DNA from: Marsupella aquatica
Taxonomy: Eukaryota > Plantae > Marchantiophyta
DNA: 64,000 nt
Assembly (NCBI GenBank): GCA_973895155.1
Contig: OZ316899.1
Location: 7,257,241-7,321,240 of the forward strand
Direction of reading: 5' to 3'
Below the pieces are notes generated by a model. The model was given only the letters and a program-made list of their open reading frames with translations. It searched no databases and was not told where the DNA came from. Position 1 is the first letter of the stretch. Every line of letters starts with the position of its first letter. Below are positions 5,501 through 57,459 of the stretch, in pieces. A program made the position numbers and the translations under genes.

Positions 5501-5844
5501 TTGAAACCAGAATTCCGCAACGATTTTGGCTTGCAAAAGCAATCGATTGTGTCGTAAGAGATACCGACAACGCGAATGTTGGAGAGTTCCAAGTTGAATG
5601 GTGGCGCCCTCTTAATCGCAACAGTTTGGCAACCGAATCAGAAAGATATCGGGACTGCTTTAATTCAAAGCAAACGTGGGAAAGGGATCCCAATTACCTC
5701 ATTCCCCCAGTCACGAATGATTGGATGCTTGCAACTTCAACCATCACCGGATGGACATCAAAAGCGAAAGCAAAGGTAAAAGTTCCAGCGAGAGTTTTGG
5801 AAAGTGTGAAGGTTTACATTACAGAAACGATTGAGGAGAACTAA
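2550..5844 (+). pseudogene. Sola-like DDE transposase with two N-terminal En/Spm-TNP1-like domains; disrupted
   Basis: Motifs FAKCDLC, HDKMDQAK, LTGMLTHG, HLQLDNSGKDNKN and FLMVGHTHEDVDAFFS. Frameshift at ~4265. In-frame TAG at 5311-5313, with ORF 5317-5844 continuing the same frame. Superfamily assignment is from motif memory. Confidence 0.75.
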
Positions 5845-20109: not shown

Positions 20110-23100
20110 CACTAGAAGAAAACCTGTGTTTTACTACTACAGGCCCTGCAACTACTTTGCCTAAATAACTCATACGTGGTGCCAAACACTGTTTTTTTAA
20201 TGGGTTGTAATAATCTGCATTTTATTACTCTACTTAGAACTATGTTACCTTAATCACTGATTACAACTCTCCTTTTTGCCACTAAAACTTACATCACTTG
20301 AATTAGAGTTGTATATTACACAAATTTGCAAATCACTACAATCCACCGTCCACTACACCGTCGATGTTTACAACTCTATTTTCAACTAAGATTTTACCAC
20401 TGGCAGAAACCACTACAAATACAAATACCACCAATATTTGAATGGTAAAGGTGCTTTTTCAATAAACTCCCAATCAAGTGAATCATTTCCAAGTGATCTC
20501 AATTACTTGAAATAATGTCATTTGTGAACACACCTATTGTTACTATAAATATCACCAATAGTGGAGTCACAAATGAATTTTGTCAAAGTAACTTTAAAAT
20601 ATTTTAGTGACAAGGACATTTTTACAAACAACTTAAGATTGAGTGGATTATTTGTCACTGTCCAAAAGTCTTTAAATAAAGTCATTATTATCACATATTG
20701 TACAACTACAAATGTCACTCATATTAGAGTCCAATAAATATCATTTGATGCAACTTTAGACCAAGTGTCACATTCTCCATAGTCCAAAATCACTCTAAAG
20801 AATGTCATTCTCTTCATACATTTTATTAACTCCAAATGCCACTAAGAGTAGAGTGCCAATGCAGGGCCTTGCAAATGACTTGAAATGAAGTGGATCATCT
20901 TCCATTCTCAGAAATCACTATAAATAATGTCATTCTTTAAATACATTTTGCAACTACAAATGCCACCAGCATTAGAGTGTCAAAACAATTTTGACAATTG
21001 ACTAAAAATTGGGCAGATTATTTTGTGATGTCCAAAACCTCTCCCAATGATGTCATTATCAACAAACATTTTCAGTCAAGATATGCATGCCACCCGAATT
21101 ACAATGGCAAACGAATTATATTTTACAACTTGTACCCAAACCACTACAGAACAGGTGGTTATAGGGTTTTGGGCACCTGTCACTTGAAATACCACCGTGT
21201 TTTGAGTTGGGAAAATTATGTGTTTAAACTTGCCATGAATTGCATTTATATGTACCAGCCCAAACCACTTCACATAAGGTCGTTTCGAGCCCTCACCTTT
21301 TGGCAACTACAAATTACACCCGTATTTGAGTCATGCAACACACATTGGTGCGACCACTTGCTATGAACTAGTGCTAAAAGGAGTGAATTGTGTGGACGCA
21401 TCACATAAGCTCCATATTTGTAATTCCGTAGAGTCTTGGAGTGATTTGGGTGGAGTTCATGATGTTCCATAACTTGTGTGCCTCAAATCTCTTCACCTTG
21501 GCATTTTATCCGTCACAACCTCATTGTTGTTGCTATAACTAGTTGGCACACATGATGGGGGTGTCCCACGGCTTCACCATGGGGTGGCTAACACAGAGGA
21601 ATTGTGATGGCGGCGGGCCCAACCCTCCTCCTTTAATGATGGCCCTCTGAGAATTGTCACAAGGTGGATCCACTTCTCATTATCCATTGTAAGTTTGTCA
21701 CTCCCCAAATCACTAAAAACTCTGTTCTTCAAAACCCTCATTTCTAGCGACTAACATTATCACTCAAGCTGGGGTGGTAAATCACGCATCCCTCTAAACA
21801 ACTTCTCATAAAGTGGTAGTCCTAGGGTGAGTACGTATTGGTCCCAAACCATTACAAATGAGGTGGTTTTAGGGTTTAGGGCAAATGCAACTTAAGATAC
21901 CACCGTTATTTGAGTTGAGAAGTAAATTGGGTGTGAACACTTGCAGTCAAGTGCATTTGAGTGTACCAGCCCAATTGACTCAAAAAAAGGTCCTTTGAGG
22001 CCCTCGCCTTTTGGCGACTACAAATTGCACCCGTATTTGAGTCATGCAACACACTTTAGTGCAATCACTTGCCATGAACTAGTGCTAAAAGAAGTGAATT
22101 GTGTGGACGCATCACATAAGCTCCATCGTTGTAATTCCGTAGAATCTTGGAGTGATTTGTGTGGAGTTCATGATGTTCCATCACTTGTATGCCTCAAAGT
22201 TCTCCACCTTGGCATTTTATGCGTCCCAACCTCATTGTTGTTGTTATAACTAGTTGGCACACGTGATGGGGGTGTCCCACGGCTTCACCATGGGGTGGCT
22301 AACACGGAGGAATTGTGATGGCGGCGGGCCCAACCCTCCTCCTTTAATGATGGCCCTCCGAGAATTGTCGCAAGGTGGATCCACTTCTCATTATCCATTG
22401 TAAGCTTGTCACTCTCCAAATCACTAAAAACTCTGTTCTTCAAAGCCCTCATTTCTAGTGACTAACATTATCACTCAAGCTGGGGTGGTACATCACGCAT
22501 CCCTCTAAACAACTTCTCATAAAGTGGTAGTCCTAGGGTGAGTACGTATTGGTCCCAAACCATTACAAATGAGGTGGTTTTAGGGTTTAGGGCAAATGCA
22601 ACTTAAGATACCACCATTGTTTGAGTTGAGAAGCAAATTGGGTGTGAACACTTGCAATCAAGTGTATTTATATGTACCAGCCCAATTGACTCGAAAAAAG
22701 GTCCTTTGAGGCCCTCGCCTTTTGGCGACGACAAATTGCACCCGTATTTGAGTCATGCAACACACTTTAGTGCGACCACTTGCCATGAACTAGTGCTAAA
22801 AGGAGTGAATTGTGTGGACGCATCACATAAGCTCCATCTTTGTAATTCCGTAGAGTTTTGGAGTGATTTGGGTAAAGTTCTTGTGTGCCTCAAATATCTC
22901 CACCTTGCCATTTTATGCGTCACAACCTCATTGTCGTTGCTATAACTAGTTGGCACACATGATGGGGGCGTCCCACTGCTTCACCATGGGGGGGCTAACA
23001 TGGAGGAATTGTGATGGTGGCGGGTCCAACCCTCCTCCTTTCATGGTGGCCCTCCGAGAATTGCCGCAAGGTGGATCCACTTCTCATTATCCACTGTAAG

Positions 23101-23500
23101 TTTGTCACTCCCCAAATCACTAAAAACTCTGTTCTTCAAAGCCCTCATTTCTAGCGACTAACACTATCACTCAAGTTGGGGTGATACATCACGCATGCCT
23201 TTGAACAACTTATTGTGAAGTGGTAGTCCCAGGGTGATGGTTGTTCACAAACCACTGCAAATGAGGTGATTTTAGGGTTTAGGGCAAATGCAACTTAAGA
23301 TACCACCGTTATTTGAGTTGAGAAGTTAAATTGGATGTGAACACTTGCAATCAAGTGCATTTGAATGTACCAGCCCAATTGACTCGAAAAAAGGCCCTTT
23401 TGAGCCCTCACTTCTTGTGGATTGAAGGTGAATGACTTGCACTTCTGGACCTAGCTTCACTCCATGATTGACAAATTGAGCACTAGATTTAGATAGGATA
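20110..23500. mobile_element. CACTA (En/Spm) element end, non-coding
   Basis: CACTAGAAGAAAA terminus at exactly the point where homology to family X stops; many subterminal actacaa/cacta motifs. Right boundary uncertain. Confidence 0.7.
21130..23410. repeat. ~711-bp tandem repeat (~3.2 units)
   Basis: tgtaccagccc at ~21251, 21962, 22673 and 23366; units carry a (degenerate) ttttagggtttaggg. Confidence 0.92.
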
Positions 23501-26004: not shown

Positions 26005-27052
26005 TTATTTAATCGTCAAGATGTATCCATACTTTGCCCGTTTTTGGCTAGCGCCAAGCGCTAACCACAGGACACACTTCTTTTTGGAGACAAAACTCCT
26101 ATCTCTTTTGCCCATTAGAAAAGATAAATGCCATTTAGAGTTGTTCAACATTCCCAAATTGTCTAAATGTCCATTTGATATTGTCGACCAAGTAGGTAAC
26201 GGACTTTGCCCAATGTGGGAACTGGTTTGACTTGATAATATCGGATCATGAAGATCCAACTTCAACACATTCCTAAATACCCAATATAGATATTTGCAAG
26301 GCATGTAGGGTTTTTTGTAAATGTGTCGACGGTAAAAATCCTCACACGAGCAACAAGGGAAACAACAAATCTGAACCCAATAAGAGGTTGCAGTCCTCTC
26401 ATGTTCATGTGTTCTAATACAATATTGTTTTCCCCAAGCATTCCCACTCATGACATCTCTCTTGCATATCAATCTCATTATTTCTTTTTCAGATGCTTCA
26501 ATCTTCTTGTAATGTGTTTGAGTTAGATTCACTCTTTGCAAGCACTTCCTTCCATTCCTTGAGGGACATCTCAAAATGGGGTCTGCCAAATTGATCATCT
26601 CCTCGAACAGATTCACATCAATGCGTAACTTGGATGAGGATGGCTCCTGAGAACCTTCCCCTCTCTCTCCTTTCACAATTAGTTCTTGTTCTCTCAAGAA
26701 TTGGATCTCGCCCTCCTGAAGATTGGTCCCTCTCGCAATGGGAAGAATGGATGGTACATTGGGAATGTTTGAAACACCTCTTCTTTGTGACATTTGTTAT
26801 TTGGGCAAAACCATATCTGGTCTGAGTGGGGCTCTAAACTAAAAAGTCTACATCCTCTCACTGATATTTCCACAACTCCTTCTGGATTTGGACACCCAAT
26901 CTTCTTTACTCAATTTTGACATTCATTTTGGCTCCCTCTCCAACCAAGGGTTCCATTGCAAGCAAGACCAGCACCACATTTTGAAGTTTGTCAGAGATGC
27001 CACACCTAGAGCTTTATCACTTTCCATGGGGAGAAGAGAGTCTTCAGGCGCG
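26005..27052 (-). pseudogene. MULE copy 2, C-terminal part with SWIM finger
   Basis: YWVQICCFPCCSCEDF..PCKYLYWVF and WFCPNN, homologous to 13341-14414. Confidence 0.8.
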
Positions 27053-27659
27053 TGTCGTGCGCATACACATCGCTACACATCATACATCGCTTGTCACATA
27101 CATCCAAACATAGTCATATTGCCACATCACAAACACCAGAGAATGGAATACAAGTGAAACTCATGTCCACACATGTCCAAAACCCACAATAATCTCAATA
27201 CAATTGGCACAACGATCCCGGTCAACAATACCCCATTGATCCCGCACCGATCCGATCACACACGTATCTCAAGCCAACGCACCTTGCACTACTCAAGGAA
27301 TCCACGTTACACAAACAAAGCTCACAACCACCATAGCCACTCAAGATCCTCTCTCTCTCCAAGGCTCAACATTGAAAGATGACCTTTCAATGCCTCACAA
27401 GTGAGAAGTACCCTCTCACACAAACCTGACGGAACCTTATCGGCTCATATAGCACACATACCAAACATACAGATCTAGATAGTACGATACACTCTAACAC
27501 TACCTAGAATGGTGTGACAGCTGTCGTGCGCATACACATCGCTACACAACATACATCGCTTGTCACATACATCCAAACATAGTCACACTGCCACATCACA
27601 AACACAAGAGAATGGAATACAAGTGGAACTCATGTCCACACATGTCCAAAATCCACAAT
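27053..27659 (-). repeat. 3' terminal repeat complex, + strand order A(27053-27190)-B-C(27326-27519)-gc-A(27522-27659)
   Basis: Two 138-bp A copies; C matches 41446-41637; G-tract (gctaggggggcg on minus) abuts the inner A. Confidence 0.92.
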
Positions 27660-27832
27660 CGCCCCCCTAGCTGGGAGTAAGGTCCCCTAACTCTAGCTAG
27701 CCATGAGTTCTACAAGGTTGATATACACCTTTTTAGGTGTGAAGATCAGGAGGCCGGGTGCAAGTGAGCCCCATCGATCACCTACCTGCAATCCATATCT
27801 GCCAAGAGAACACAAATGATAACTAGTCGGCT

Positions 27833-29320
27833 TCATCGACACTGAGGACACAACCATGATCCACTAGGAATCACCTACAATGGTGGTGTCAAACATGATA
27901 TGTGTCATCCTCTAGAACACTTATCACAAATCAACATAGTAGTTGCTCCCTGAGCACATCCACACAACATACATTTCAAGCCAGCACGAACATGTGCCAA
28001 GCTTGGATATACTGTACCGTCAATGTTGGGAAGGTGACATGGTGCACAGTTGCGCACATGATCCTTCCAAACCATACCATCGCGTCCCTCCAACATCAGG
28101 ACACCAGAAGGCAACACTTCACGCACACGTAAGATTGTCCGGCCTGCGGTCACATCAAGTATTGTGGGTGCTGTCTGCTGCAAATAAACATAATCACCAG
28201 GATGAAATCGTCGAATGCTTGCACACGCGGTAACCTCCTCCACGAATAGTGGCATATCTCAAAGTATCACGATGTTGGGCAATGGCAAGGTTGTCAAAAG
28301 CCATGGGCATCACTCTCTGAAATACCCGTGCTCTCTCTAAACACACCTTGATCCAAACATCAGGATCATCCAAGTTCACAACTGGTGCAGCATCACGACA
28401 AATAGTTGCTGGCAAATCTGGCTCTCTACCATAGAGCAAAAAGTAAGGTGAGAAGGATGCAAGTGATGCTTGCCGACTGAAACGGTAGCCCATAGCTAAC
28501 CAAGGTAGCTGGAGATCCCAATCTCCCAGATGACCAACCTGCAAGCCATACTTACGCAATCCTCTCTTCATAGTTTGCACAACTCTCTCAGCTAATCCAC
28601 CTGCCTCAGGATGATCACAAGAGGTAGTACGATGATCAATCAGAGCTTGTTCACACAAACTCTCAAACTCTCCACGGAACTCAGTTCCCTGATCAGTCAA
28701 CACCTCAGTTGGTGCTCCAAAATGACTAAGTACATGATCCAAAAATGTAGCAGCAACTCCTCCACTGGCTTTATCTGGCAACGCCACTAGCTCAATCCAC
28801 TTGGAGAAGTGCTCCACCATGACCAAAACATACCGATTATGACGTTGCGTAAGAGGTAATGGACCAGCAAAATCCAAACTCCAACGATATCCCAAACCCA
28901 TGATCGGCAATGGGTGCAACTAGGGAGTGGGAATATTAAATGATGCTCTCACTCTATCACATACCACAAACTTAGCTATCAACTGCTGGACATGAGTGTG
29001 CATACCACGCCACCAATACTGTGTCTGCAGCAAGCTATAAGTACGCTTCACACCAAAGTGACCCAACTCCTCGTGTGCATGTCGCACCAAATATACTCGT
29101 TGTGATGGTTTTGGTACCACCAACACCCTACCATCATGCGGTACTCTCAAAAGATGGTTTCCCTCCCATCGAAACCTCTTGGCTCTCTGTAGAACCTTGT
29201 CACGTTCTTTGGCATCAACAATGCCAACAATAGAACCATTGCGCAGATATTCCAACACTCTCACATCATTGTGAATATCTTGTTGTCCAGAAGTTACCTC
29301 ACCAACATCCACATCTGAAG
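27833..29320 (-). pseudogene. Integrase (HHCC + DDE) and C-terminal PHD finger
   Basis: HEELGHFG..C.VC, WSLDFAGP, TDQGTEF, GLAERVVQT and CMLC..MLICDKC..WH..C..W.C..C. Confidence 0.9.
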
Positions 29321-29325
29321 ACTCA

Positions 29326-30879
29326 TCATCCACTCCATCCAATGAGGTAGAGTCCACAGCCATTGTATGCTGGCACCCAACAAAGAAAGGCAGATGCATG
29401 CCATCCTGGCACCATCTTCTTATCTAACTCATTATGCCATCTCGCTCCAGTCTCATCCTGCTGACTAGTACATGGATTGCGGCTTAATCCATCTGCATCC
29501 AAGTTCACTTTTCCAGGCCTATGCACCACCTGGAAATCATACTCCTGTAACAACAATGCCCATCGTGCAAGCTTCCCTGTAAGCTTGTCAGACTCCATTA
29601 ACCACTTAAGAGGCTGATGATCAGTGATCAAGGTGAAGGGGTTACCAAACAAGTAGCAACAAAAGTGTGCAACAGCCCACACTGCTGCCAAACACTCTCC
29701 CTCATAAGAGCTATACTTAGTCTCTGCTGAATTGTTTGATCTACTAACATAAGCCACAACAAACTCATTCCCCTCATCATCCTTCTGAGTCAGCACTGCT
29801 CCAAGTCCTACTCCACTCCAATCAGTGTGTAGCTGAAATGGTCTGCCTGAAATGGGTCTTCTCAAAATAGGGGATGATGCCAAACTTTGCTTCAACTCCT
29901 GAAAGGCATGCTCCTGGTCATCACCCCAAATCCATTCCTGATCCAACTTAGTGAGTATGGTCAAAGGTTTAGCAAGCTGGCTAAATCCTTTAACATACCT
30001 CCTATAGTAGCTCGCCAATCCCAAGAACGCACGAACTCTACTCACATCAGTAGGACAAGTAATCTGTGTAATGGCCTCCACTTTAGTCTGCTGTACATCC
30101 AATCCCTCTGGGTATATAGTGTGGCCCAAATACTCAATCTGTTCTTGGAAGAACTTACACTTGCTAGGATGGAGTTTCAACCCATGTGCTCTCAATCTCT
30201 CCAACACAATCTACAAGTGCTGCTGATGTTCTTCCACAGTAGAAGAATAGACCAAAATATCATCAATATAACATCTGACAAAATCCAAACCTGCAAGGAT
30301 TCGATCCATGACTCTTTGGAACTCAGCTGGTGCATTCTTCAACCCAAATGGTAAGAATAACCACTGATACAAACGATCTTTGCCATAAGAATCAATCCCC
30401 CAGAATGTTGTCTTGGACCTATCAGCATGCCTAATTGGAAGCTGATGGTACCCTGCCCTCAGATCCAATGAACTGAAAACCTTTGCATGCCCCACAGCAT
30501 CAAAGATCTCCTCAGGTGTGGGCATGGCATATCTATCAGATTTTGTCTGGCGATTAATGGGTCTGTAATCACCACACATGCGCCTATCTGTGTAATTGCC
30601 ATGCACATCCTTCTTGGTTGGCATCACTGTGGTAGATGCATACTCCCCATATGAAATCTCCACCAATCCAGCCTCCAATAAATCTTGAGTTCTGCTTTGA
30701 ATCAGAGCTCTCTCCATGTCATTGTAATGGTATGGCCTACAAAAGATTGGCGCATCACTAGCCAATTCAATCTGAATACCAAGACCCTTTAATGTCCCCA
30801 AATCCTTCATGCTAAATGCAAAACAATTCCAGTAACTCTTCAGGAATTGATGCATGCAACGTCTCTCCTCCCCTGTCAA
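29326..30879 (-). pseudogene. Gypsy reverse transcriptase and RNase H
   Basis: RMCGDYR, LDLRAGYHQ, PFGLKNAP, YIDD, HTDWS and TDHQPL; stop at 30211. Confidence 0.93.
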
Positions 30880-31149
30880 CTTAGGGCCAAGCTATGGTTC
30901 CCAACTCTCCACCAAATCCCTAATATCTCTTTGTAGGGTAGAAGAGATAGCTGATGATTGTTATTTAGTAGTAGATTGAGCAGTCCCTTCCTGCTCAACA
31001 ATCTGTCCAGCCTTGGCCAATCGTGCCATAGGTCCATGGACCGTCTGCTCACCCCCAACTGTGGTTAGTATTGTCTCAGTGGACCGCAAGCTCACCAAGG
31101 GACAATCAGTAATTCTAGCATAGCGCATCCGCAACCGTTCAGCTACTCC

Positions 31150-32110
31150 CAAGCTGATAATCCAAGTCAAACAATTCAGATCCATTGCTTGACCAAGAAC
31201 CTGGCGCCACAAACCCTCTGACACAGAGGCAACTGCAGTGGTGCCAGTAAAAAATCCCATAGCACGCTCTCTCTCATCAGCAGTAGGCTCCACTAACTGC
31301 TGGAGAGCTGTGTCCCACACAAGTCCAGGGCCACCTGCTCTTAATGCATATGAAGCAGAGTGGCTTACAAGAGTGGGTAATGCACAACATGGGCGCCCAA
31401 CTGCATTGACCATTGCCAATGGAGGTCTATCAGGTTGGGTCACACCCTGTGCACAATGCCCTGGATCCAAAATATCATCCACCACTAAGGCTAGTGAGCG
31501 TGGAATGCTGTCAAATGCGCGCTTCAGCACCTCACATGGGATCAAATTGGTCCACCACAAGCGTGGACGATGTGCACGGGAACCCACACGTGCAACATCC
31601 AATAACACAACAAGTCCAATCCAAGACCTCACCTGGTGAATACTGGCAACAAGCCGACTATGATCATCACCTAACAATGGCACATTCTCCAAAATGTATG
31701 CTGGAGATTGTGTCTGATGTAGCTAGAGATGACGCAGCACCAGTAACATTTCACAAAACAATGCAGAGCGTGGATCATGAAGTCCATGCCCAACGCCGGC
31801 TCTAGATTGGCCCTGACATGGCCAATCAACAATCACCAAATCAATGGGGCCAACACGATGCAGATGATCCGCGCCCAGCAATGAAATATCAGTAGGTAGT
31901 GCATGCTGATAACCACGAACAGCATCCACTGGCAGCAACTATGGATATCTATCCACCAACATAGCCACATGTTGCAATGAGACCCTCTGTGCTGTCTCAT
32001 CTGTATCCACATACAAATAACGACGCACAGGAATTCCTGCCTGAAGAACAGCAGCCAATCCAGTGCTAATCCCACCAAAAAGATCCAACAAACAAATACC
32101 CTCCGATGGA
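31150..32110 (-). pseudogene. C5 cytosine methyltransferase domain (DNMT3-like) in the pol frame
   Basis: Motif I LLDLFGGISTG, IV WPCQG, V GL.DPRSALF, VI LENV, VIII AHRPRLWWTNL, IX ERERAMGF and X LGQAMD, all in one frame with TAG stops. Confidence 0.88.
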
Positions 32111-32181
32111 TACTGCCAAGCAATAGGAGTGGTGTCCAATGGTGAAAGAGTCACAAGTCCATCTGCAAGAGACTGCTCTGC

Positions 32182-34858
32182 TCATGACTTTGGTGTAAAA
32201 GCATGACGCCATGCATCATGTACCAATCGTGCTGCTGTCTGTGGCAAGGCCTGTGCATTGCCCCACACTAGTGGCACAACACTGCCAATAGGTAATCCTC
32301 GCATGATGTGCTCCTCATGTGACTCCTCCAATGGTGGAACATCTGTTGCATGTGCATTACCCTCAATCAAATCATCAGGTCCAGCAATTAGACCACTGAA
32401 TGCTACCAAAGACAATGGTGTGGATTTAGGGCCTCCCATAAGTCCACTAAATCTCACTGGCAATTTGCTCAATTGAGCATCTCCTAACTGCCAATCAGGT
32501 CTATATGACATTGATTCCTCCAAAAAATCAAGAATAAATCCCATGGGGTAGAGCATTGTACATCCCACCAACACATCATATGACTCTGCCTTAGTCAGAA
32601 TAGCTCGCACCTGTATCTATGAGCTATCTGTGGTATGACCTTCCTGAATCCTCAAATCAAGAGGTCTCCTGGTAATGTGCTGTGTAGGTGTAGGTCCCCC
32701 CAATGAAGTCTGAATGGGAAAGGGACAATCCTCCAAATCCTCTGGACGCAATCCCAATCCACGTATGACAGACTTTCCCAACATCAAGGGCTGAGCACCA
32801 GTATCCAGTAACACCCTCTCTGGCTAGTATACTGCTCCAGAAAGCCCAACTAATCAAAAGATACCACTCCGATTATCCAATGATACAACACTAGGTTTAA
32901 ACCTAGTCCTCTCAAATGCAGGGCGTGCTGGTAAATCCACCAAGCTCACTGCTGCTGCATGCCATGTCTCACTAGTAGCAATAGGTGGCATGGTCTTCAC
33001 TGCATCAACATTGCAAGTTGCTTCTGCATGGGAAGCAACCACTGGAGTGTCCTCACAGAGTGTAGCTACCAATCTGAACACTTCTGTAGGACCAACTCCC
33101 AAGTTCAGCATGTCTGTCGCTGAAAATAATGGGGTGCGTACTATGGTAGTAGCCGCCCCCAGCAGGGTACCTGTCATCCCTGCTGCATCACTACCTGATT
33201 CTACCAACTTACCCACGCCAGGGTTTGTCCGAATCGGGTTCATAGAGGCAGTCTGAACTGTCTCTGACAATGTAAAAGACTGAGGAAACTTTGTTTGCCG
33301 ACGTGCATCCCCCTTTGTGGATCTAACTCCACTACTGCTCCTCAGGGCTCAAGAGCTTTAGCTGCCCCACGTGTCAAAGCTGCTGATGCATCAATATGTG
33401 CAGTGCCACACAGAATCCCATGGTGGCAAGGTCTCCATCAGCTCCATAAGATGTGGAAGGACCATGGGATGTGGAAGGTCCATAGGATGTAGATGCCCCA
33501 TCACCAGAAGTAGGTCTCATCTGAGAACTAGCCATGGAAGCTAGCTGTTGCTCCAATTGAGCAATCTTAGCATCCTTTGGATCTATGGTTACAGTAGGGG
33601 CAGCGTCACCTCCCTGTCTCCCTACATGTGGCATGCCACGACCACGTCCACCACCTCTACCTCCTCCTCCTCTTCCTTGATCATGTGTACGGGATCCTCC
33701 TCTTCGTAACTCAAGGTGGAGTGAGAAACACCTATCCTTGGTGTGTCCAGGAGCTCCACAGTGATCACACTGTCGCTGATTAGGCGTTGATGCTCCCCCT
33801 GATCCTCTATGATCTGGGCAATATCTCTGTGCATGATCCCCACCACAGGTCCAACATCCTGACTGCTGTCCAACATAAGAGGGCACAGGTCTCTGGCTGG
33901 TAGACTCTCGTGCAGTAGGCTTCTCCCTCTGGCTCTTCCGTGCAGTAGGCTGTGGTGTGGATGTAGATGCAACCTTTGGTGCTTCCTTGGCAAATCCGGA
34001 AGTCACCACCTTCTCATTCACCATATTGAGCTCAATACGCTCAAAAAGGGTAAAAACAACTACTAATGTGGGATCTGCATCCCTAAGCAGGGTGACATCT
34101 CTCACTCTGCGTCGCAATTCTCTTTTCAAAATTGCATACCAAAACTAGACTGCCTGAGCCTTTGTCACTCCCTTGGTGACAGTGATCAATCTGCGCATAC
34201 GAGTGTATGCCTCACATAGACTCTCTCCAATTTTGCGCTGGAACTCCTAGAGACCCTTCAACTTATCAGCTCTCACACCCTGATAGTTTTGCTTCGGTAC
34301 CTCAAAGAATTCCACCACAGGGTTAAATACTGGTGCAACTCCAGTTCTTGTCACAATCGCACCGGCAGGAGTAGCGGTGGATGATGCTGGAGTGCTGCTG
34401 GTGGATGGTGTGCCACTCTGGCTAGTGCTGCTAGAAGAAGCAGCAGCTGTGGCAATGGGTTGGGCAGCCGCACTAGTGCCATAGGTGATGGACACGTAAT
34501 TAGGCGACCAATGCTGCCTCCATGCCTCAATCTCAACCAAATGAGCCTTCTGAAACCCATGGTAGTCATCCATGGGTGGCCCCTCCAAATGCTGAAATAA
34601 TCCCTTCCATGCCATGAAAGGGGTAAACAACGTGGCGTTACGCAATGTCTGCATATTGCACCACGTATCAAACTCTTGGATGAAGTCATCCAGATCAATT
34701 GTGCCAACTGCACCAGAGCATTGTCGTGGGCCCTTTGTAGCCCCGTACATCTTGTCCATATCCCACAACAAAGGTACAACCACCTGATGACGAGGAGAAC
34801 TGGTCATTGAGTCCTCGTCGGAATCACTATCTGAAGCTGCACTGCTGACTGCTACCAA
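32182..34858 (-). pseudogene. gag (two CCHC knuckles, RG-rich tract) and aspartic protease
   Basis: CWTCGGDHAQRYC, CDHCGAPGHTKDRC, VLLDTGA and DVLVG. Confidence 0.85.
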
Positions 34859-35407
34859 TGCCGCTGGCCAAAATTACGCCCCACTCTGAGTGAAACCGGT
34901 CCGTCGTCCATCGGGTAACCCAGCAGCACCAGAAGAATCCGTGGTGACCAACCTAACCGAATCTATATGATAACCCTAAGGGAAATCTGTCCTTGTCAGC
35001 AACACAAACACTCACCATGGTGTATTGGGCATCACTCCAACATCACCAGGAGAGAAATACGTAGCACAACTAGAATATCCGGTTGCAAACCCGGATCACT
35101 CCTATAGAATCAAGCGCCCACGCCAAACTAACATGGTGCATAAACAGGAAGCATATGTGGAGAGGATCCAATCAACAAGAAGAGATCCACAATAACTCTC
35201 CACATCAATAGTGATCATACATCAATCAAACAATGTTCATAATGTTCAATGTGGGGCCTTCATAATAGGCCTCCAATGTTCAATGTCGTAGCTAAGGATC
35301 CATGCACAATTGGTTCAATCCATGCATCTAGATGGATTCAGAAGCATCAAAAACCTTCAGGGAGCTTATGATTTGCCCCAAAATGGCAATCTAAACAAAC
35401 TAGTATG

Positions 35408-35571
35408 TGTTGTGTGACAATGGAGAGACTTGCAACTCGCTATTGTGTTCCATTATGGGTGTGACTTATATAGTCACCATAGGGTTACATGTTGGGGTTG
35501 GTGTTAACCCATGTTACCCCTTCAGGATAGGGTTAGGGGTTAACCATGGTCTAGAGTAAATGGTTACAACA
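35408..35571 (-). repeat. Copia 3' LTR
   Basis: TGTTGT..ACAACA, identical to 41032-41195. Confidence 0.95.
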
Positions 35572-35933
35572 CTTCCCCTTGGAGAGTTTAGGGGTATAAA
35601 ATCACCACACTACTAACCCTATGTTTATTTTTGGTGCTACCCCATTAAAACCTTCTGCTTTCTTCATAAGGAAAAAGGGTTCTAGCCACCATTAGTAGGA
35701 TTTTCTTAAATTTGCACTAAGGTGAGTCTACCTTATAATTTGTCCAAATGTAAAGTTTAATTTGGGTCCCCTATTACTAAAACTACTTCCCCTTAGTTTA
35801 AATGGGGTGTTTACGATAATAATTATTCTATCTTGTATTGGTATGAAAAATCGTATTCTGTCTATGTATACAGGAACGAAAGTTTTAGGTTGCATCGTCG
35901 TCGAGTCGGCTGTCGTCTGTCGGCTCGAGCTGC

Positions 35934-38900
35934 TCATTCAAACTGTGGAGTTTCTCTCGTTTGTGTGTCGACGGGCAGGCGCAATGTCGACAATCTTGTC
36001 ATGCCGATCGCTGCTACGTGCTTTCGATGGAGGCTGGCGGGTAATGGCTTCGTGAATAGATCAGCACAGTTCTCCTGGGAGCTCTTCCAGTGCACATTGA
36101 TGTGCTGCCCTATCTGTTCATGGGTAAAGAAAAATTTTGGGTCGATATGCTTCGTGCGGTCTGTCTTCATATATCCTGCATTGATTTGGTCCACGCAAGC
36201 TTTGTTATCTTCATGGATAATCGTCGGTTTGGTGAGTAGTGGCTTACCAGTATTCTTGCGGATGTGGTTTATGATGTTTCGAAGCCATAGCGCTTCTCTT
36301 GTTGCTTCGTAAAGAGCTATTACTTCTGAATGATTGGACGATGTGGTAGTCAAGGTTTGTTTTGTACTGCGCCATGATATTGCTGTGTTGCCTTGCAAGA
36401 AGACATAACCAGTCTGAGATTTCGAGTCATGCGGATCGGATAGATATCCAGCGTCCGCGTATCCTTGCAGTTCATCCGGGTTATCATTGGCGAAATACAG
36501 GCCCATATCCATGGAGCCTTGAAGATAACGAAATAGTCGTTTGATGCCGTTCCAGTGGCGAATAGTAGGTTGGGCGCTATGTCGTGCCAAGAGACTCACT
36601 GCAAATGAAATGTCGGGACGGGTGTTGTTCGCCAGATAGAGGAGAGCTCCGATTGCAGATAAATAAGGCTTGTCTGCATCAAGAAGTGGTTCATTTTCTT
36701 GTCTCCTTCTAAACATATCTTTAGTGGTGTCCAGGGATCGCATCTCCATGGGAGTCGAGACTGAGTAAGCATTTTGCATGTTAAACTGTCGAAGAATTTT
36801 CTTTGTGTAAGTTGATTGACTAATAAACATACTTTGTGGCAGGTGGTCGAACTGTAGACCGAGGCAATACGTCGGTTCTCCCAGTTCTTTCATTTCGAAG
36901 ATGCCCTTCATTGTATTAATAGTCTGCTTTAATAGCTTGGGGGTGCCGAACAGATTGACGTCATCAACATATAGTGCTAATATCACGAACTCAGGTGCTA
37001 GGTGTTTTATAAAAATGCAAGGGGCGAGGTCGTCATTTATAAAGCCAAGAGTCTGCATCTTAGTTTTGAATGTCTGATACCAGATGCGTCCGCTCTGTTT
37101 CAGTCCGTTTATTGATTTAAGGACTTGCACAGCAAATGCCTGCTGTCCAGTCCCATATTTACCTGGGTACTGGAGTGGTTCTTTGAGTGTGTTGCCACTG
37201 CTCAACACTAGGCCTTTAATGTCATCATCAGGGACAATCTGTCGAAGTCCCGACTTCATGTCCTGACTTAGGGTATGTATATTCTTCCCCTGGATGTGCT
37301 CTACCACTCTTTCGAGCAATTCCTTTGGAGCTTTCATATATATTTCGGAGTCTAAGACTCCATATAGGTACGCAGTTACCACATCCATGAGTATGTTTTT
37401 GAGTTTATGCTTTCTTGAAAAAGATATTAAGTACCTAAAGGTAGTTACATCCATAACTGGCGAATAGGTTAAATCGTAATCCCTTCCAGGGATTTGGGTG
37501 TAGCCTTTCGCTACAAGCCTTGCTCGATATCTTATGACATCTCCTTGGGCATTGCGTTTTCTAACGAATATAAAACGACTATCTGTATAGTCATTCTTTG
37601 GTTGTACAACCTTAACTGGGCCGAATACTTGTCTTTTGATTAATGCGTCCATTTCTGTATTGATAGCCTCTCTCCACTGTGGCCAATCGGGCCTTTTCTG
37701 TGCTTCTTTGATTGTATAGGGATCAGGTGTATCATTTGAGATGGATTGGGCTATATGATAAGCAAACTGCTCGTCTATTATTGTGTTTGATCGAGCATAA
37801 ATGTGTCCTGTGTGTGTGTATTGAATAGACATTTCTTCATTATCTGGTGCCCTCTTTTTCTCTGGTTCGATACTGACCAGATTAAATGTGGTTTCAGTAT
37901 TTACCGTTTGTGTACGTCTCTGGCGAGGGCGAGAATCAGTGGATCCTAGTGGGCGTCCTCTCTTCGCCTTAGGTAAGGTTTCCTTTGCTTGAGTTGGCAG
38001 CAGCTGAATCCGAGCTGGGGTATTGACTGCTTCAACATGTGATCTGGTCACATTTGCTGCGTCATTGAAAGCGTCAGGAATCTTTTCCAACATTTCGTGG
38101 AGATGTAATAAGCGCCTTACCTCCTCGTCTGCACTTTGAGTTCTTGGATCTTGATTGAGTAGATTTCTGCTATTCCAATTGAGCTGTACTGGTGTTATGT
38201 CGTGTGATGTAGTTGGCGCCTTAAGTAATGAGGGGAAAATTTCCTCATAGAAATGGCAGTCAGTGTGTCTTGCTTTAAATACATCAGCTGTGCTAGGTTC
38301 CAGATAGCGGATAAGAGACGAGGAGTCATGGCCAATATAAATACCTTCTCTCCTCTGTGGGCCAAGTTTGGATCGATGTGGCCCAAGGATGGGTACCATC
38401 ACTTTACATCCGAATACTCTAATGTGTGAAAGGTCAGGGGGTAAACCGAATGCAAGGTGATGAGGGGTTTTAGTATTAAATGCTGACGGCCGATACTTAA
38501 GCAAAGTTGTTGCATGGAGGACAGCGTGTCCCCATGCTGAAGGTGGTAGTTTAGAGTTCAATAGAAGTGGCCTTGTTATCATTTGAATCCTTTTTATGAC
38601 TGACTCTGCTATGCCGTTCTGGAAATGGACGTAAGGAACTGAGTATTCAATGTCGATCCCCGCTGTCATACAGAAGTCGTCAAATGCTCTGGAGGTAAAT
38701 TCCCCTGCCCCGTCCACTCGCAATTTCTTAATTGGACAATCTGGGAATTGTACTCGAAGTTTTAATAAGTTGGCTAAGATTCTGGCAAAGACCAGGTTAC
38801 GAGTAGAAATTAATGAAACGTGGAGCCATTTAGTTGAAGAGTCTACAATGGCTAAAAAATATCTGAAAGGCCCACTTGGAGGGTGTATTGGCCCGCAGAC

Positions 38901-40574
38901 ATCAGCATTTAGACGTTCCAGGAATTTAGGGATAGTATAGATGGTCTTTTGTGTAGCTGGGCGTGTACTCAGCTTCCCCTGAGAACATGCAAGACATTGC
39001 TTATGATTTATAGATGGACGCACTCCTTTAGGGATTCCTCGTGAGTCCTTGATGATGCGACGGTACATATTTATTCCCGGGTGCCCCAGTCGACAGTGCC
39101 AGAGGTATGTAAGATTATTTGATTCTGCTGTGGCATAGTTCGCTGTTATTGGGGCTGCATATAAACCCGGGGGTATTAGAGGTAGTATCTCTTTGATTTG
39201 AATTCCATCTGTGGTCATGGCTACTATTTGCAAAGTAGGTTTCTGCTGGATCATTGCTGTGCGGAGTTGATAATTATTAGCAACAATGTCTTTGAAGCTA
39301 ATCAAATTTCGAGTAGCTTTTGGTGCAAAGATAGCTGCTTCGATGTTAATGACTGTTCCTTGGGGAAATTTGACAGTAGCCTTTCCTGTTCCTTCCTCAA
39401 TCTTATTCGTACCTGATATGGTTGTCATTATCCTGGCAGATGGAGTGATATCTTGGAAATAACTCCTATCTTTTAGGATAGTGTGGGATGTCCCACTATC
39501 AATGATACCTAAATTGGGATCGTTGGAGGAGGGATATGGTGGCTCTTCTGTCACCAGATGAGCTTCAGCGTTGGATTGGTCTATCGTATCATTTTCTTCT
39601 CGATAAGATGGTAGCTCCTCTTCCAATTCCATATAGTTGCCATCTGGATTTTGCTTTAACTTAGCTCTTGCTTCTGAGTGCCTCTTAGCCGCTTGGTCAG
39701 AAGCCCAGCAGTCTTTCTTTAGGTGGCCAATTTTTCCACATCTATAACACATTCGGTCTTCTCGTGTGTTGTCAGATGATTGGGCGTGACCTCTGCCGCG
39801 TCCTCTTCCTCTACCCCGGCCACGGCTTCTGCTGCCTTGACCTCTAGTATTTTCATACTGATTTCCCCTTCCACTATAATTTGAGTTGCGACCTCGTCCT
39901 CTATATCCACCTCTTTGTGTACCCCGGCCTCTTATATTTCGTTGTTGGTCTTCTGGGGCATTGTAATTAATTTCTGGTTTCTGTGGTATAGGTGCAGTGC
40001 CTGGTGGTCGTTTCCTTGCATTCTGTATAGAGACAATTTGTTGTTTCTCCTCTACTAGGAGATGTGCAATTAAGTTAGAATAAGTTGTGAATTGCATATT
40101 CCTGTATTGAGTTCCCAAGGCGATGTTGGCCTCTGGGAAAGTACTCAACGTTTTATCGATTTTGTCTAAGTCTGCAACTGGGTGGCCACACATCTCCAAT
40201 TGAGATGTAATACGAAATAGAGAACTATTATAATTTGCTATAGAAGTATGATCCATGACACGTAGATTAAACCAATCCCTGCGGGCTTCTGGGAGCCAGA
40301 CCTCTCGCATATGGTCAAATCGAGCTTTTAATTTGTCCCATAATAGACGGGGATTAAGATCACTCATATATTGTGTCTTCAGTGATGGTGTCAAATGCTG
40401 TCTAAGTAGAAATACAGCTTTGGCCTTCTGTTGCAATGTTAAATTGTCATCAGTAATTAATGTATCCTCTAGTTGTATTGATGCGAAGTAGGTCTCTACA
40501 TCTATTGACCAGGTTAAGTAATTATTGCCATCTGCCAATAGGGCTGGAAAGTGTAATTTCTCCAGGGTGGCCAT
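35934..40574 (-). CDS. Copia gag-pol polyprotein (gag, CCHC, protease, integrase, RT, RNase H)
   Basis: CYRCGKIGHLKKDC, IIDSGTS, LWHCRLGH, VDGAGEF, NGIAES, YVDD, YADA, HEDNKA and ADLFTK; uninterrupted. Confidence 0.96.
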   Translation of the reverse strand: MATLEKLHFPALLADGNNYLTWSIDVETYFASIQLEDTLITDDNLTLQQKAKAVFLLRQHLTPSLKTQYMSDLNPRLLWDKLKARFDHMREVWLPEARRDWFNLRVMDHTSIANYNSSLFRITSQLEMCGHPVADLDKIDKTLSTFPEANIALGTQYRNMQFTTYSNLIAHLLVEEKQQIVSIQNARKRPPGTAPIPQKPEINYNAPEDQQRNIRGRGTQRGGYRGRGRNSNYSGRGNQYENTRGQGSRSRGRGRGRGRGRGHAQSSDNTREDRMCYRCGKIGHLKKDCWASDQAAKRHSEARAKLKQNPDGNYMELEEELPSYREENDTIDQSNAEAHLVTEEPPYPSSNDPNLGIIDSGTSHTILKDRSYFQDITPSARIMTTISGTNKIEEGTGKATVKFPQGTVINIEAAIFAPKATRNLISFKDIVANNYQLRTAMIQQKPTLQIVAMTTDGIQIKEILPLIPPGLYAAPITANYATAESNNLTYLWHCRLGHPGINMYRRIIKDSRGIPKGVRPSINHKQCLACSQGKLSTRPATQKTIYTIPKFLERLNADVCGPIHPPSGPFRYFLAIVDSSTKWLHVSLISTRNLVFARILANLLKLRVQFPDCPIKKLRVDGAGEFTSRAFDDFCMTAGIDIEYSVPYVHFQNGIAESVIKRIQMITRPLLLNSKLPPSAWGHAVLHATTLLKYRPSAFNTKTPHHLAFGLPPDLSHIRVFGCKVMVPILGPHRSKLGPQRREGIYIGHDSSSLIRYLEPSTADVFKARHTDCHFYEEIFPSLLKAPTTSHDITPVQLNWNSRNLLNQDPRTQSADEEVRRLLHLHEMLEKIPDAFNDAANVTRSHVEAVNTPARIQLLPTQAKETLPKAKRGRPLGSTDSRPRQRRTQTVNTETTFNLVSIEPEKKRAPDNEEMSIQYTHTGHIYARSNTIIDEQFAYHIAQSISNDTPDPYTIKEAQKRPDWPQWREAINTEMDALIKRQVFGPVKVVQPKNDYTDSRFIFVRKRNAQGDVIRYRARLVAKGYTQIPGRDYDLTYSPVMDVTTFRYLISFSRKHKLKNILMDVVTAYLYGVLDSEIYMKAPKELLERVVEHIQGKNIHTLSQDMKSGLRQIVPDDDIKGLVLSSGNTLKEPLQYPGKYGTGQQAFAVQVLKSINGLKQSGRIWYQTFKTKMQTLGFINDDLAPCIFIKHLAPEFVILALYVDDVNLFGTPKLLKQTINTMKGIFEMKELGEPTYCLGLQFDHLPQSMFISQSTYTKKILRQFNMQNAYSVSTPMEMRSLDTTKDMFRRRQENEPLLDADKPYLSAIGALLYLANNTRPDISFAVSLLARHSAQPTIRHWNGIKRLFRYLQGSMDMGLYFANDNPDELQGYADAGYLSDPHDSKSQTGYVFLQGNTAISWRSTKQTLTTTSSNHSEVIALYEATREALWLRNIINHIRKNTGKPLLTKPTIIHEDNKACVDQINAGYMKTDRTKHIDPKFFFTHEQIGQHINVHWKSSQENCADLFTKPLPASLHRKHVAAIGMTRLSTLRLPVDTQTRETPQFE

Positions 40575-41018
40575 AGTATCTCAAATCTGTAACAAATCAC
40601 TGTCCGCGTTCTGATTAATATCAAATCTATGTCGTTCTCAATTACTTCAATCACTCGTGCCTTTTTATCCACGGGATTTTCCTTGGCGATAAAAGAAACT
40701 CAGGATTTCCGTGGCGGAACAATAAGATATAAAAAAAATTGAGTCGAATTTGAACGGGAAAACACTATTTCAAAGTGATTCATGCCTCTCCGATAGTGTC
40801 ACTAATCAATTATATACGGATTGTGTGTTTTCCGTAAGGATTCGTGGACTATTCAGAGGATCCGAAGTTTAAATTATGGTGTGATTTGAATCGGTGGCAG
40901 TTACTGATGTGGGGTGGGGCTAAAAACGCAACATTGGAAGTCAATTTCTTTGTCTGAAAGCCGTACTCCAATTATCCTACCTTAACTCCAAACTGTAAAA
41001 AAAAAAATTAGATGCTAT

Positions 41019-41031
41019 CGCGCTGATAACG
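41019..41031 (-). promoter_or_regulatory. Primer binding site, internal (half) tRNA-iMet type
   Basis: CGTTATCAGCGCG immediately after the 5' LTR. Confidence 0.8.
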
Positions 41032-41195
41032 TGTTGTGTGACAATGGAGAGACTTGCAACTCGCTATTGTGTTCCATTATGGGTGTGACTTATATAGTCA
41101 CCATAGGGTTACATGTTGGGGTTGGTGTTAACCCATGTTACCCCTTCAGGATAGGGTTAGGGGTTAACCATGGTCTAGAGTAAATGGTTACAACA
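41032..41195 (-). repeat. Copia 5' LTR
   Basis: Identical to 35408-35571. Confidence 0.95.
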
Positions 41196-41445
41196 GTATG
41201 TGTATAAAATGCCTAAGTGCTCATTCCATTAACATCAAAGTGGAAAGGAGTGTGTGTACACAAGAGCACTTGAGAACCACATAGTTAAGCGCATGGGGAA
41301 GGAATAGCTTTGGGATGGGTGACCTCTCACTTGTAGTTATGCACCAAATTGGCCGCTCCAAAATCAGCAGCTTGCAACTACTCCTCACGTACCAGCTTGT
41401 TGGCTCCTGCTTCGCCCTCACGCCCCTCGTCCTGAGTTGCCTCGA

Positions 41446-41637
41446 AGCCACCATAGCCACTCAAGATCCTCTCTGTCCAAGGCTCAACATTGAAAGATGA
41501 CCTTTCAATGCCTCACAAGTGAGAAATACCCTCTCACACAAACCTGACGGAACCTTATCGGCTCATATAGCACACATACCAAACATACGGATCTAGATAG
41601 TACGATACACTCTAACACTACCTAGAATGGTGTGACA
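41446..41637 (-). repeat. 5' terminal repeat C of the DNMT-Gypsy element
   Basis: Matches only 27326-27519; A and B are absent at this end. Confidence 0.92.
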
Positions 41638-42560
41638 CGCGGCCTCAGCTTCATGTCTGACGGGAGAAACACACGAGCTTGTCATTTGACGTGAGGTGTT
41701 TTCAGGACCACGACCTCCTCATAATCTTCACTTTCACTTTGAGACAAATTAACAACGCCACTTCCACTAGCAAAAGGCATGGAAGACATCTTCTCAACGT
41801 CTATGGAATGAAGGTTTCTCCTTTTCAAACCTCTTGTATTTGGTGAAGTCACAAGGATAGTATCATGTTTGTGAGAGTCTTGTGCCGAGACATTCCCAGT
41901 TGCATGTCCTTTTTGTTTCACTGATCAAGTTATCATTGGGGTTATCATGTCTCCATTCAATAGAACAGTTCTTTCCAAATCAAATTCAGTTGCTTGGAAA
42001 GAAGTAGATTGGTGGCTTCTTCAAATAGACATGGAGACCCTGCCATGTCTACGGATCTGAAAGCCAGCTCAAAGATAGTTGGTCCAATTCCCCTATGTAA
42101 TCCTCGACCGTATGCAGTGTAAGTTGCAATCTGGCATACGGCTCTGTTTTGGTCAGTTTTGCATCCCTCCAAGAGGCCAACCTGCTTCTTCATTTTCCAA
42201 GCTTGCACGCTTGTGTGCATTGATTCCAAACTAGTACAATTTGGAATCATCCCAACCTCCTCAGCACTCTTGCTTTGTGACAAGAAATGAATAGAAATAT
42301 TTAGTGTATTATAAACAAAAGTACTTAACAATATGTATTGGATTCATGTCAATGTGGATGAACTCTTAACCTTAGTAGCGCGTGGTGCTATTAAATATGC
42401 AGTGTAAATGCCATGGCTGCAGTTCCATTTTGAACCACATTCTAATCTCACAATGTGCACAAAATTCCAGATTTTACATTAGCGCTTGGCGCTACTATTT
42501 TGAACAGGAGCAGGGGACGTGTCGTTCACATTTTCCAAAGTAGCATCGGGCGCTATAATT
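41638..42560 (-). pseudogene. MULE copy 2, upstream part (DDE core exon not seen)
   Basis: MIPNCTSLESMH..EGCKTD.NRA..G.GPTIFELAF matches 12840-13235; tagcg..cgcta palindromes continue to ~42557. Confidence 0.75.
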
Positions 42561-48330: not shown

Positions 48331-51300
48331 CCTGGGAAAATATTTTTTATAATAAAAGGTGAGACCGCGAAAACCCCACGGCCGGGGGGAAGCAAACAGC
48401 CCCATAGATAAATCAGAACAACTCCCTCAGGGAGGCCAGCGGCAAAAGCAAAGGCCAGAATCACAATAAAAAAAAGGGGGGACTAAACCTAGTGGCCCAA
48501 AATGTGAGTGACCCATACATCATGTCAACTTCTAGAGCCCTAGAGCCGGTAAAGCGAGGTATCCCATTCGACCTCTTCCAATAGCTATCACTCCTAGACC
48601 AGCAACGCAGCCACAGAGGTGACTCTGCCAGTACTCCTAGCAAACCACTATCGTCGTTCTAAAGCTATGAGATCCCTAGCCTTAGCCAGTCTGATGCGCC
48701 GCCCACCAATGGGGAGGCACCAGCCCGCAGCCCGCAAGTGAGTCTCGGTTTCCGATAGGACCAGCCCAAAATCAAATACTCGGATCACCTTTTTCTCAAA
48801 AATCTGCTCATTTCGTCCCATCCATAGAGCCCACAGCATTTGATAATGCAGGAAAAGGCAGGCAGATTGGGTGTGTGTTCTGGAATCAGTAGCAACAAGG
48901 AGTTCCAGGCTACCCCAACCCTTGCCAAACAGTTGTCTCAAGGAGCTGGACTCTCCGATTCCCCAACAGAGCATGGCGTGAGCACAGCCAAAGAAAAGGT
49001 GGGGGATGCTTTCAATTCTCCCAGGGCAAACATGGCATATACCTGAGCCTGCACCAATCTTAGCAGCCCAAGATCCCGTGAAGAGACCACCAACTATCAA
49101 GCGCCAAATGAATGTTTTTGCCCTGGAAGACAAATCAGAAGTCCAAATTCGAGTCCAGACAGAATTCCATTCTGTTTCCGATCGCCTGCATCCCCAAATT
49201 CGATTCCATCTCTCAAAGTCAGTGCTTTTGTCCCTCAAGAGTTCGTAAGCTCGCTGGTTGTTAATTCGAAAGGACTTTGAGAAATCCCGAGTGTCAGCCC
49301 AGCGCCACTGCCTAGCACCCGGTTCCAGGTCCAGCCAGCAGGAGTGGCCACGATGGATGACATCCAGTATGAGTGCACACTGTGACTTACATTCTTCAGA
49401 GACACCTCTAAGATAATGCCAGCGACAAGAAAGGTCGATCCATACCCCTGAGCCCCCAGACCAGCAGTCAGCTATTTTCCTGATTCCTAGTCTCCCTAAG
49501 GTCTTTGTGACCTCCTCCAAATCAGTGACCGGCCAGGAGTGGGGCCCGGCGAGACATCGAATAGAGTCCTGAATGCTCCATCTGCCAGGTATACCGTCCA
49601 CACCGGGCACAAAAGAGAGGCCACGCCTTAAGGCCTCCCATGCCATCCACAGGCCCCATGTGTAAGGCATTCCTCCGCTAGCCCGTGGCGAACACATCAG
49701 TAACTTATCCTGGAAAGTGTAATTGTTCCGACGTATCACCTTGTAAAGCCTCCAGCCCATGAGATCAAGGTAGCCTGCAGCAATAGCGACCATTCAGCAG
49801 TGGGGCAATCCAGAGCCTTCATGAACCATTGGGTAAGTAGAGCCTCAGAGTGAGTGCGGAAGTCTTTGAAACCAAGTCCGCCATTTGTTTTAGGCCTTGC
49901 CATCTTCGTCCAGGCCACCAGAGGAGTCTTCTTGTTCCCCTCATGATTATAGCCCCACAGAAAGTCCCTGCAAAGCGCCACCAATTTCTTTGCCAGCCCA
50001 ACAGATGATCGCAAGTGCATCACATGGTAGATAGGGATAGCCAACAAAACCTGTTTAATCAGCAGAGTCCTTCCTGTGAATGAGATCAGTTTGTTAGCCC
50101 AGGAAGCCAATCTCTTAGCGATCTTGTCTAAACAGAATTTGTGAATTTGATCCGCCCCAAGCTCTAGTCCGAATGGCGCCCCAAGATAGATCTGCAGCTC
50201 TCCTGCTTTGCTGATCCTGCATTCAGTTTTGCTTAGCCATTCTGGAATGCGCTCAAGCGCGAATGGTATGATAATCGATTTTTGGAGATTCAGTCTAGCA
50301 CCAGACGCGCACTCATAGCAGGCCAGCGCTGCTTTAGCCTCAGAGAATGCAGTCTCACATGCAGGGATAAACATTCCAACATCGTCTGCAAAGAGTCTGA
50401 AGCAGATAGTACATTGTTCGCTGATCTTGACTCCCTGCACTCTTCCTTCTTTGATCTCTGAATCTAAGAACGTCATTAGCGGTTGGGTGGACAGCACAAA
50501 GAGTAAGGGAGAGAGGGGGCAGCCCTGCCTCACCCCCCTACGCAACACAATTGCCTCTGAGATAAGCCCATTCACAGCCACCCGTGAAGAAGCCGTCGAG
50601 AGCAAAGCTTGAACTAGCTGAATGGTCCAACTATTGAACCCGAGGAGAAGCATTGTTTCCCACAAGTAATCGTGATTTACCCTGTCAAAAGCTTTTTCGA
50701 AGTCTAGCTTCAGAAAGAGTGTCGGACATCTTGTCTTCCGAGCCCATTCGCTAGTGAGCCATGCTACCGATATATTCTCTAAGATGTGACGGCCAGGGAT
50801 GAACCCAGTTTGCTGCTTGTTAATCAACTTAGGGATGACCAGTTGCATCCGGGCAGCCAAAAGCTTAGCAATCAATTTATAAATCGTATTTAGCATGGTC
50901 AGTGGTCTCCAATCTTTCAAGAATCTTTTGTCCTCTTTCTTGGGTATCAGCTTGATAATGCCCAGCTTGATGCTTGCCGCTAGCTTGCCTGTTAACCAGT
51001 AGTCTTGTATCATCTCCAGCAAATCCGTGTAAATATAATCCCAGCCTGCCCTGAAGACCTCTGCCGTTAGTCCGTCTGGTCCTGGAGTCTTATCAAGTGG
51101 GAGAGACCAAAGTCCATCTTTAACCTCTTTTACCGATGGGATTTCTTCCATCATGCGAATCTCAGCTGCAGTAAGAGAGTGTCTTGTTTTCTCCAGCAGC
51201 CGCTTCTGAGCAGCCAAACAATCCTGGTGTTCCGAGTAAGAAAGTGACTCAGGGGAGTATAGATTGTTGCAGTGCTTTTCCACTTCTCTCATTATCAGCG

Positions 51301-57395: not shown

Positions 57396-57459
57396 ACTTC
57401 AAGGAAACTTATTAAGATAAACATCTGCATGTATATACTTAGAGTTTTTCCTTGCAACA

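Follow-up and report, generated by a model that had tools for sequence, protein, structure and literature searches.

An internal junction of abutted termini in a bryophyte Ty3/Gypsy element as a candidate site of integrase opening

How a retroelement comes to carry its own two ends, joined to each other, in its interior is the question raised by positions 27516-27525 of the 64-kb stretch of Marsupella aquatica DNA that we analyzed (the window). The original prediction held that the palindrome GACA-GC-TGTC found there consists of the two termini of an element placed head-to-tail around a 2-bp spacer (27520-27521), and that an identical palindrome lies at 58949-58958. We found that GACAGCTGTC has exact matches at these two places only in the window, and that the two are homologous copies of one another. 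As a bare motif, GACAGCTGTC is at chance level, with three matches against 2.29 expected when one mismatch is allowed, and it is the context that makes the junction real. Comparison of the window with itself revealed that the junction is the seam of a 138-bp repeat (B) with a second repeat (A) and that, read on the minus strand, it consists of the 3' end of copy 1, GC, and the 5' start of copy 1. Copy 1 is a full-length Gypsy element on the minus strand (27053-41637), arranged as A1-gag-PR-DNMT-RT-RH-IN-PHD-PPT-B1-GC-A2-B2, with decayed ORFs. It begins with TGTCACACC at 41637 and finishes with CACGACA at 27053, and these are its true termini because a 4-bp target-site duplication (TSD), CGCG on the plus strand at 27049-27052 and 41638-41641, fixes them. 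The 5' and 3' termini delimited by this exact duplication are the two halves of the junction, as had been claimed. The predicted cleavage geometry also agrees with the sequence, in which a cut after CA on both strands would leave CA-3'OH ends with 2-nt 5'-GC overhangs. Together, these findings establish the head-to-tail junction as a real feature of a Gypsy element.

The repeats on either side of the junction lie on the minus strand in both copies. In copy 1, a polypurine tract (PPT) at 27660-27671, the motif of which is also present in relatives, adjoins B1 (27522-27659), which extends from the PPT to CGACA; beyond the spacer follow A2 (27191-27519, 329 bp) and B2 (27053-27190), the 3' terminus. 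B2 matches B1 at 95.7% over their full extents (27053-27190 and 27522-27659). A1, the 5' terminus (41448-41637), matches the first 192 bp of A2 (27328-27519) at 97.4%. A1 is shorter than A2, and at the 5' end of copy 1 both the final 137 bp of A and the primer site that would be expected there are missing, probably through a deletion in that copy; by analogy with relatives, we infer that the last 137 bp of A2 represent U5. The 3' part of copy 2 occupies 58487-62519, with likeness to copy 1 ending at 62519, and its 5' end was not found within the 64-kb window. Its 3' end is the same as that of copy 1 and comprises B1 (58955-59092), A2 (58625-58952) and B2, again the 3' terminus (58487-58624). 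This end adjoins a LINE-like fragment, and LINE-like ORFs (endonuclease, RT and zf-RVT) are present in the window at 48648-53429 and 55896-58443.

Pfam matches in the element include RT, RNase H, an integrase with H2C2, and a PHD finger. In copy 1, RT and RNase H (29329-30909) and integrase with PHD (27836-29363) are broken, and stops break the Dnmt3-like C5 cytosine methyltransferase domain (31141-32100); all lie on the minus strand. The minus-strand ORF at 59266-60579 in copy 2 had been named as the integrase, and it is indeed open, with an intact H2C2 domain, DDE (rve) core and PHD finger. The relative L033, whose integrase is 67% identical, is intact and also has a protease and a C5 methylase; PF00145 was matched in L033 and L034, and the best solved matches of the methylase are DNMT3A/B. 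The window fragment 30964-31722 alone had no methylase match in Pfam or PDB, and the window methylase was recognized via L033 as a broken homologous stretch at about 31141-32100. Liverworts, Sphagnum and Klebsormidium are the sources of the named homologues. A nested Copia element (35408-41195, minus strand), which is outside the system, sits in the 5' leader of copy 1; it is young and intact, with identical 164-bp LTRs, a 5-bp TSD of GTATG and a 1546 aa ORF.

The order gag-PR-RT-RH-IN, a Ty3-like RT (best solved match Ty3 Gag-Pol, E 4e-98), the DDE integrase, TG...CA ends, the short TSD and a PPT 5' of B1 are all traits of Ty3/Gypsy elements, as is a primer site 3' of A1, which is present in relatives only and absent in copy 1. 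The trait that is missing is a complete LTR at each end, the 5' end having A only and the 3' end having B-NN-A-B or B. No Pfam match to a tyrosine recombinase was obtained in the ORFs scanned from the window element and its relatives, and no chromodomain was found in the element, which has the PHD finger instead. The element is thus a Ty3/Gypsy element with a DDE integrase, a Dnmt3-like methylase and a PHD finger. Membership of the DIRS order (PAT/Ngaro) was rejected, the split direct repeats being present and the tyrosine recombinase not. Phygy elements combine a 4-bp NCGN TSD, a tRNA-Trp primer site and two LTRs; membership here was also rejected, as the TSD is 4 bp but not NCGN and the site after A1 is complementary to the element's own A. 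The second D and the E of the integrase are separated by 34 residues, not 35, in 68/68 proteins in which the motif was found, a spacing that reads as a lineage mark near the active site. An in-frame TAG followed by CAA/CAG divides gag-PR-DNMT from RT-RH-IN-PHD and is conserved (window 62390-62392, minus strand; L033 5083-5085; L034 4661-4663; many other loci). This context resembles the leaky stop context of plant viruses, and by analogy the methylase would be made at Gag levels, with Pol produced through readthrough of the TAG.

To see how far the junction is conserved, we scanned metagenomes for relatives, kept the best 80 of 215 loci and merged loci with the same flank before counting forms. 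Among these, 13 have a long 3' end, B-NN-A-B, and 23 stop after B1. The spacer measures 2 bp in 18/18 intact junctions (the 13 long loci, L072, L033, L034 and the two window copies), and reads GC in nine, AC in six, GT in two and AT in one. The invariance expected of the spacer therefore holds for its length but not for its sequence, and since the sequence varies in relatives, a perfect palindrome is not needed. Within the window family itself, the AC variant makes up about 15% of contig depth at 27521 in public runs, a figure of depth and not of copy number. L001, L033 and L034 keep GACA-GY-TGTCA in repeats that are otherwise unalignable, and one further copy (L040/L041) has lost the junction by deletion. 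The junction was found at independent loci with distinct flanks and is spanned by contigs in two public runs from two studies. The B end meets many different flanks in public runs (56 and 47+12 contigs) and must therefore be a true terminus. At window positions 58629 and 27195, several contigs per run diverge a few bases past the start of B into diverse sequence; these could be variable seams, other subfamilies or cases of B as an end.

Eleven relatives retain both ends; their 4-bp TSD is exact in seven (three long and four short forms), has one mismatch in two (both short) and is unmatched in two. The permuted form A-B-NN-A...B was seen at 0/14 5' ends, counting relatives and window copy 1. 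Repeats within a copy share variants, at 5.75 versus 2.25 between copies for A and 1.5 versus 0.78 for B, the B signal of homogenization being weak and coming mostly from L046. Short and long forms (19 and 12, respectively) did not differ in age by mean distance (P=0.48) or terminal branch (P=0.16), a result that speaks neither for nor against an origin of the short forms by recombination; these may stem from B-B recombination or from assembly. L007 looks chimeric with L006. Viral contigs held no integrase relative and no junction match, prokaryote genomes held no junction match, and no RNA data set holding the element was listed among the public runs.

In relatives, B1 starts 2 nt after the conserved PPT, and a complete, CA-terminated A1 is followed directly by CTCAAAGAACT. 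This sequence is complementary to a stretch that lies 168 nt into A, exactly so in 9/16 loci and with 1-4 mismatches in 7/16, and a TATA-like box lies about 31 nt upstream of the complementary stretch. L033 has a different 15-nt stretch after A1, whose complement lies at offset 172 in the A repeat of L033 itself, 29 nt downstream of TATAAT. The predicted probability of RNA pairing is 0.8-1.0 in L008 and L033, and in L077, with a mismatch, the predicted fold differs and pairing is 0.2 or less. In L033, the join of A with the primer site may have arisen because A1 and A2 were collapsed in assembly. No primer site of the window family itself was seen in copy 1 or among the contig joints listed. 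Self-priming of Tf1 relies on about 11 nt of complementarity to the start of the RNA, and the primer site after A1 has what appears by analogy to be this layout. Because the PPT marks the start of B and the self-priming site marks the end of A, the LTR made by reverse transcription is likely to be B-NN-A, with the integration ends in its middle. The original prediction had cast the junction as a template for joining the termini; it appears instead to be the middle of an ordinary LTR that extends from the PPT to the primer site. A copy of the primer site just upstream of the predicted RNA start forms a hairpin in repeat A of the window (27370-27392, minus strand), L008 and L033, the copy 1 transcript being predicted, by analogy with relatives, to start near 27380; such a structure might make the 3' copy of the primer sequence inaccessible in the RNA.

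The usual view is that an LTR element integrates by way of the trimmed ends of its linear cDNA. In the window element, the ends joined to the chromosome are not those expected from reverse transcription, and we favor a model in which the DDE integrase opens the internal CA-NN-TG junction rather than trimming cDNA ends. Judged from sequence patterns, this model as a whole seems somewhat more probable than not, and the opening of the junction taken alone is the firmer part of it. Transcription would begin near the middle of A1, and roughly the first 11 bases of the RNA would pair with the site after A1 to prime the minus strand; ordinary strand transfers would then yield a linear cDNA, [B-NN-A]-internal-PPT-[B-NN-A]. 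Integrase would cut after CA on both strands at the junction in the 5' LTR copy, and the two new ends would be inserted with a 4-bp stagger, in keeping with the ends and 4-bp duplications observed. The original cDNA ends (the end of A and the start of B) would be joined, either in a 2-LTR circle before insertion or in later repair, to give A...B-NN-A|B, the product that is seen. Opening of a 1-LTR circle would produce the short form A...PPT-B, which is predicted to be a dead end. Because of the 0/14 count of permuted 5' ends, the model requires some asymmetry: possibly the 5' junction becomes double-stranded first, while the 3' copy awaits about 8 kb of plus-strand synthesis.

The same count led us to reject a symmetric 2-LTR circle opened at random. 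The circular intermediate originally proposed thus survives as a possible covalent circle but not in its symmetric form. The companion idea that abutted ends form a reactive junction gains from the fixed 2-bp spacer across unrelated repeats and from foamy virus integrase, which cuts likewise in the accessible text of PMC1180852. On a wider scale, there may be a lineage of charophyte and bryophyte Gypsy elements with mid-LTR integration sites, integrating only by internal junction opening, in which all live insertions would be 2-LTR molecules in circularly permuted form, a generalization that we offer tentatively and with slightly more doubt than belief.

Some copies carry what may be footprints of such a route. 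L072 and L074 are one insertion in two assemblies, which reads PPT-B-GC-A-CTCAAAGAACT, continues with the initial 180 nt of A in reverse complement and halts exactly at GACA, with unrelated DNA beyond. With differences at about 10/176 sites between its two arms, the structure is not a hairpin newly created by the assembly. The best reading is of a plus strand that, having copied the primer, folded back on itself and was then integrated at the inverted junction, in which case the right end of its cDNA would be A with a copy of the primer, not B; this fold-back evidence comes from a single insertion. The A|B seam consists of the end of A, the 2 nt following the PPT and TG in 10/12 copies, the precise product that joining of two cDNA ends would be expected to give, and a mostly variable seam was rejected. 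The imprecise seams are those of L006, which is 1 nt longer, and L024, where a filler of 20 nt ends with a remnant resembling a PPT. In the window family, 6/6 skip-joints begin at most 14 nt from the start of B and remove 159-251 nt of A; all are of low depth and were seen over a short reference stretch only. About 7.7 kb upstream of its integrase match, L073 contains a small rearranged element that joins a primer-site region, in inverted orientation, to the 3' leader, PPT and B.

Two other routes to the same product merit consideration, and we regard each as unlikely. In one, similar to that of DIRS and Ngaro elements, the RNA would extend into B2, B-GC-A would template the joining of the termini into a circle, and integrase would open the new junction. 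The A-B-A-B layout is the same as that of PAT and Ngaro, and the 10/12 precise seams are what inheritance would give, while the absence of permuted forms is explained only if the new junction is cut selectively. However, a primer site after A1 and a PPT before B1 delimit a normal LTR and exclude B2 from what is copied, L072 has a primer copy and not B after its 3' A, and circles were not recovered even for DIRS-1, according to the accessible text of PMC7192593. The other, equally unlikely route is linear: template switches would produce a cDNA reading GC-TGTC...GACA-GC, which would undergo ordinary 2-nt trimming, and the junction would only store the ends. Such a route requires no circle and predicts no permuted form, and the precursor of Mo-MLV is proven to be linear DNA in the accessible part of PMC11054761. 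On the other hand, signals for priming or stopping are absent from the junction, the positions marked by the PPT and primer site lie elsewhere, the invariant 2-bp spacer shared by 18/18 junctions would be unneeded, and the fold-back copy finishes exactly at the internal GACA.

Insertion in tandem, with an A-B mini-element placed beside an A...B element, is improbable to a much greater degree. Short A...PPT-B forms do occur with their own TSD (four exact, two near), but the junction carries only the fixed 2 bp without a 4-bp duplication, and a single TSD brackets the whole long form, evidence that largely refutes this reading. Moreover, variants are common to the repeats within one copy, and the short form is without the 3' repeat required for strand transfer. 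Least probable by far is a chance palindrome or an assembly artifact. The 10-mer with one mismatch is at chance level, and some metagenome loci may be chimeric, yet the junction is present in both window copies, at loci with distinct flanks and in contigs of two public runs, and the TSD-defined ends refute this explanation. The internal opening of the junction by integrase thus remains the reading that we prefer.

Among DNA transposons, IS30, IS21 and IS911 provide a precedent in which a DDE enzyme works on paired ends with a short, fixed spacer between them. Their junctions are made from DNA by the transposase, unlike the window junction, which is likely to be remade by reverse transcription. 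In retroviruses, foamy virus integrase cuts the palindrome of 2-LTR circles into ends with 2-nt 5' overhangs (PMC1180852), and cleavage of the 2-LTR junction by HIV-1 integrase is reported in PMC1905944. As far as the accessible text of these papers goes, the likeness extends to a palindromic CA-NN-TG junction, cutting of both strands and 2-nt 5' overhangs; the viral junction is a by-product of cDNA end joining, whereas that of the window element is written inside the LTR. A claim of integration through an internal junction, made in 1984, was dropped once linear DNA proved active, as the accessible portion of PMC11054761 recounts. The Panganiban-Temin experiments resemble the present case in that integration was through a junction placed within the genome; their junction was engineered, and the idea was set aside for Mo-MLV, whereas the window element would be a natural, conserved case.

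Split direct repeats are otherwise tied to tyrosine recombinase elements in the accessible text of PMC4157794 and PMC7192593. PAT, Ngaro and TOC-type elements described there share the A1-B1-A2-B2 order and an internal joint of the termini, but they use a tyrosine recombinase, while the window element has a DDE integrase, TG...CA ends, a PPT and 4-bp TSDs. Tf1-type self-priming is named in the accessible text of PMC6317226, and as in Tf1/sushi and Tcn1, the primer site lies right after the end of U5 and is complementary to the predicted RNA start; those elements have full LTRs at both ends, in contrast to the window element, which has a PHD finger and in which no chromodomain was found.

The closest known likeness is KnitGypsy-Dnmt3 of Klebsormidium nitens (De Mendoza et al.), for which a figure legend in the accessible text of PMC5890265 gives DIRS-type repeats with Gypsy domains. 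It shares Gypsy domains, a Dnmt3-related methylase and DIRS-like A-B-A-B repeats with the window element, in which the methylase differs in preceding a conserved in-frame stop. Identity between the window integrase and an integrase-PHD protein of K. nitens is 54-56%, although that protein may not be KnitGypsy-Dnmt3 itself, and kinship was gauged by pairwise integrase identity only. The junction sequence, TSD, primer site and mechanism of KnitGypsy-Dnmt3 were not found in the text of PMC5890265 that is accessible, nor did the accessible supplement text match KnitGypsy, junction or TSD. The repeat layout is therefore already known in passing, while three points appear to be undescribed, namely the position of the integration ends within the LTR, the site for self-priming and the route by junction opening; a paper on the junction or mechanism was not found in the searchable literature, subscription journals and repeat-database reports aside, and a prior description is possible.

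If integrase does open the junction, an in vitro side activity of retroviral integrases would be the normal route of an abundant natural element, split direct repeats would be explained without a recombinase, and such elements would escape tools that require two equal LTRs. If the lineage as a whole proves to behave in this way, it would supply a natural, obligate circle-junction route, long rejected for retroviruses, and a simple origin for A-B-A-B split repeats, perhaps those of PAT and Ngaro too.

Elsewhere in the window, a group of features at 2550-5844, 1781-2390 and 21135-23417 includes two ORFs, one of 585 aa and one of 350 aa with DUF7869, which lie next to a 169-bp tandem repeat, together with a separate tandem repeat of about 710 bp. 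These ORFs and tandem repeats are possibly other mobile elements.
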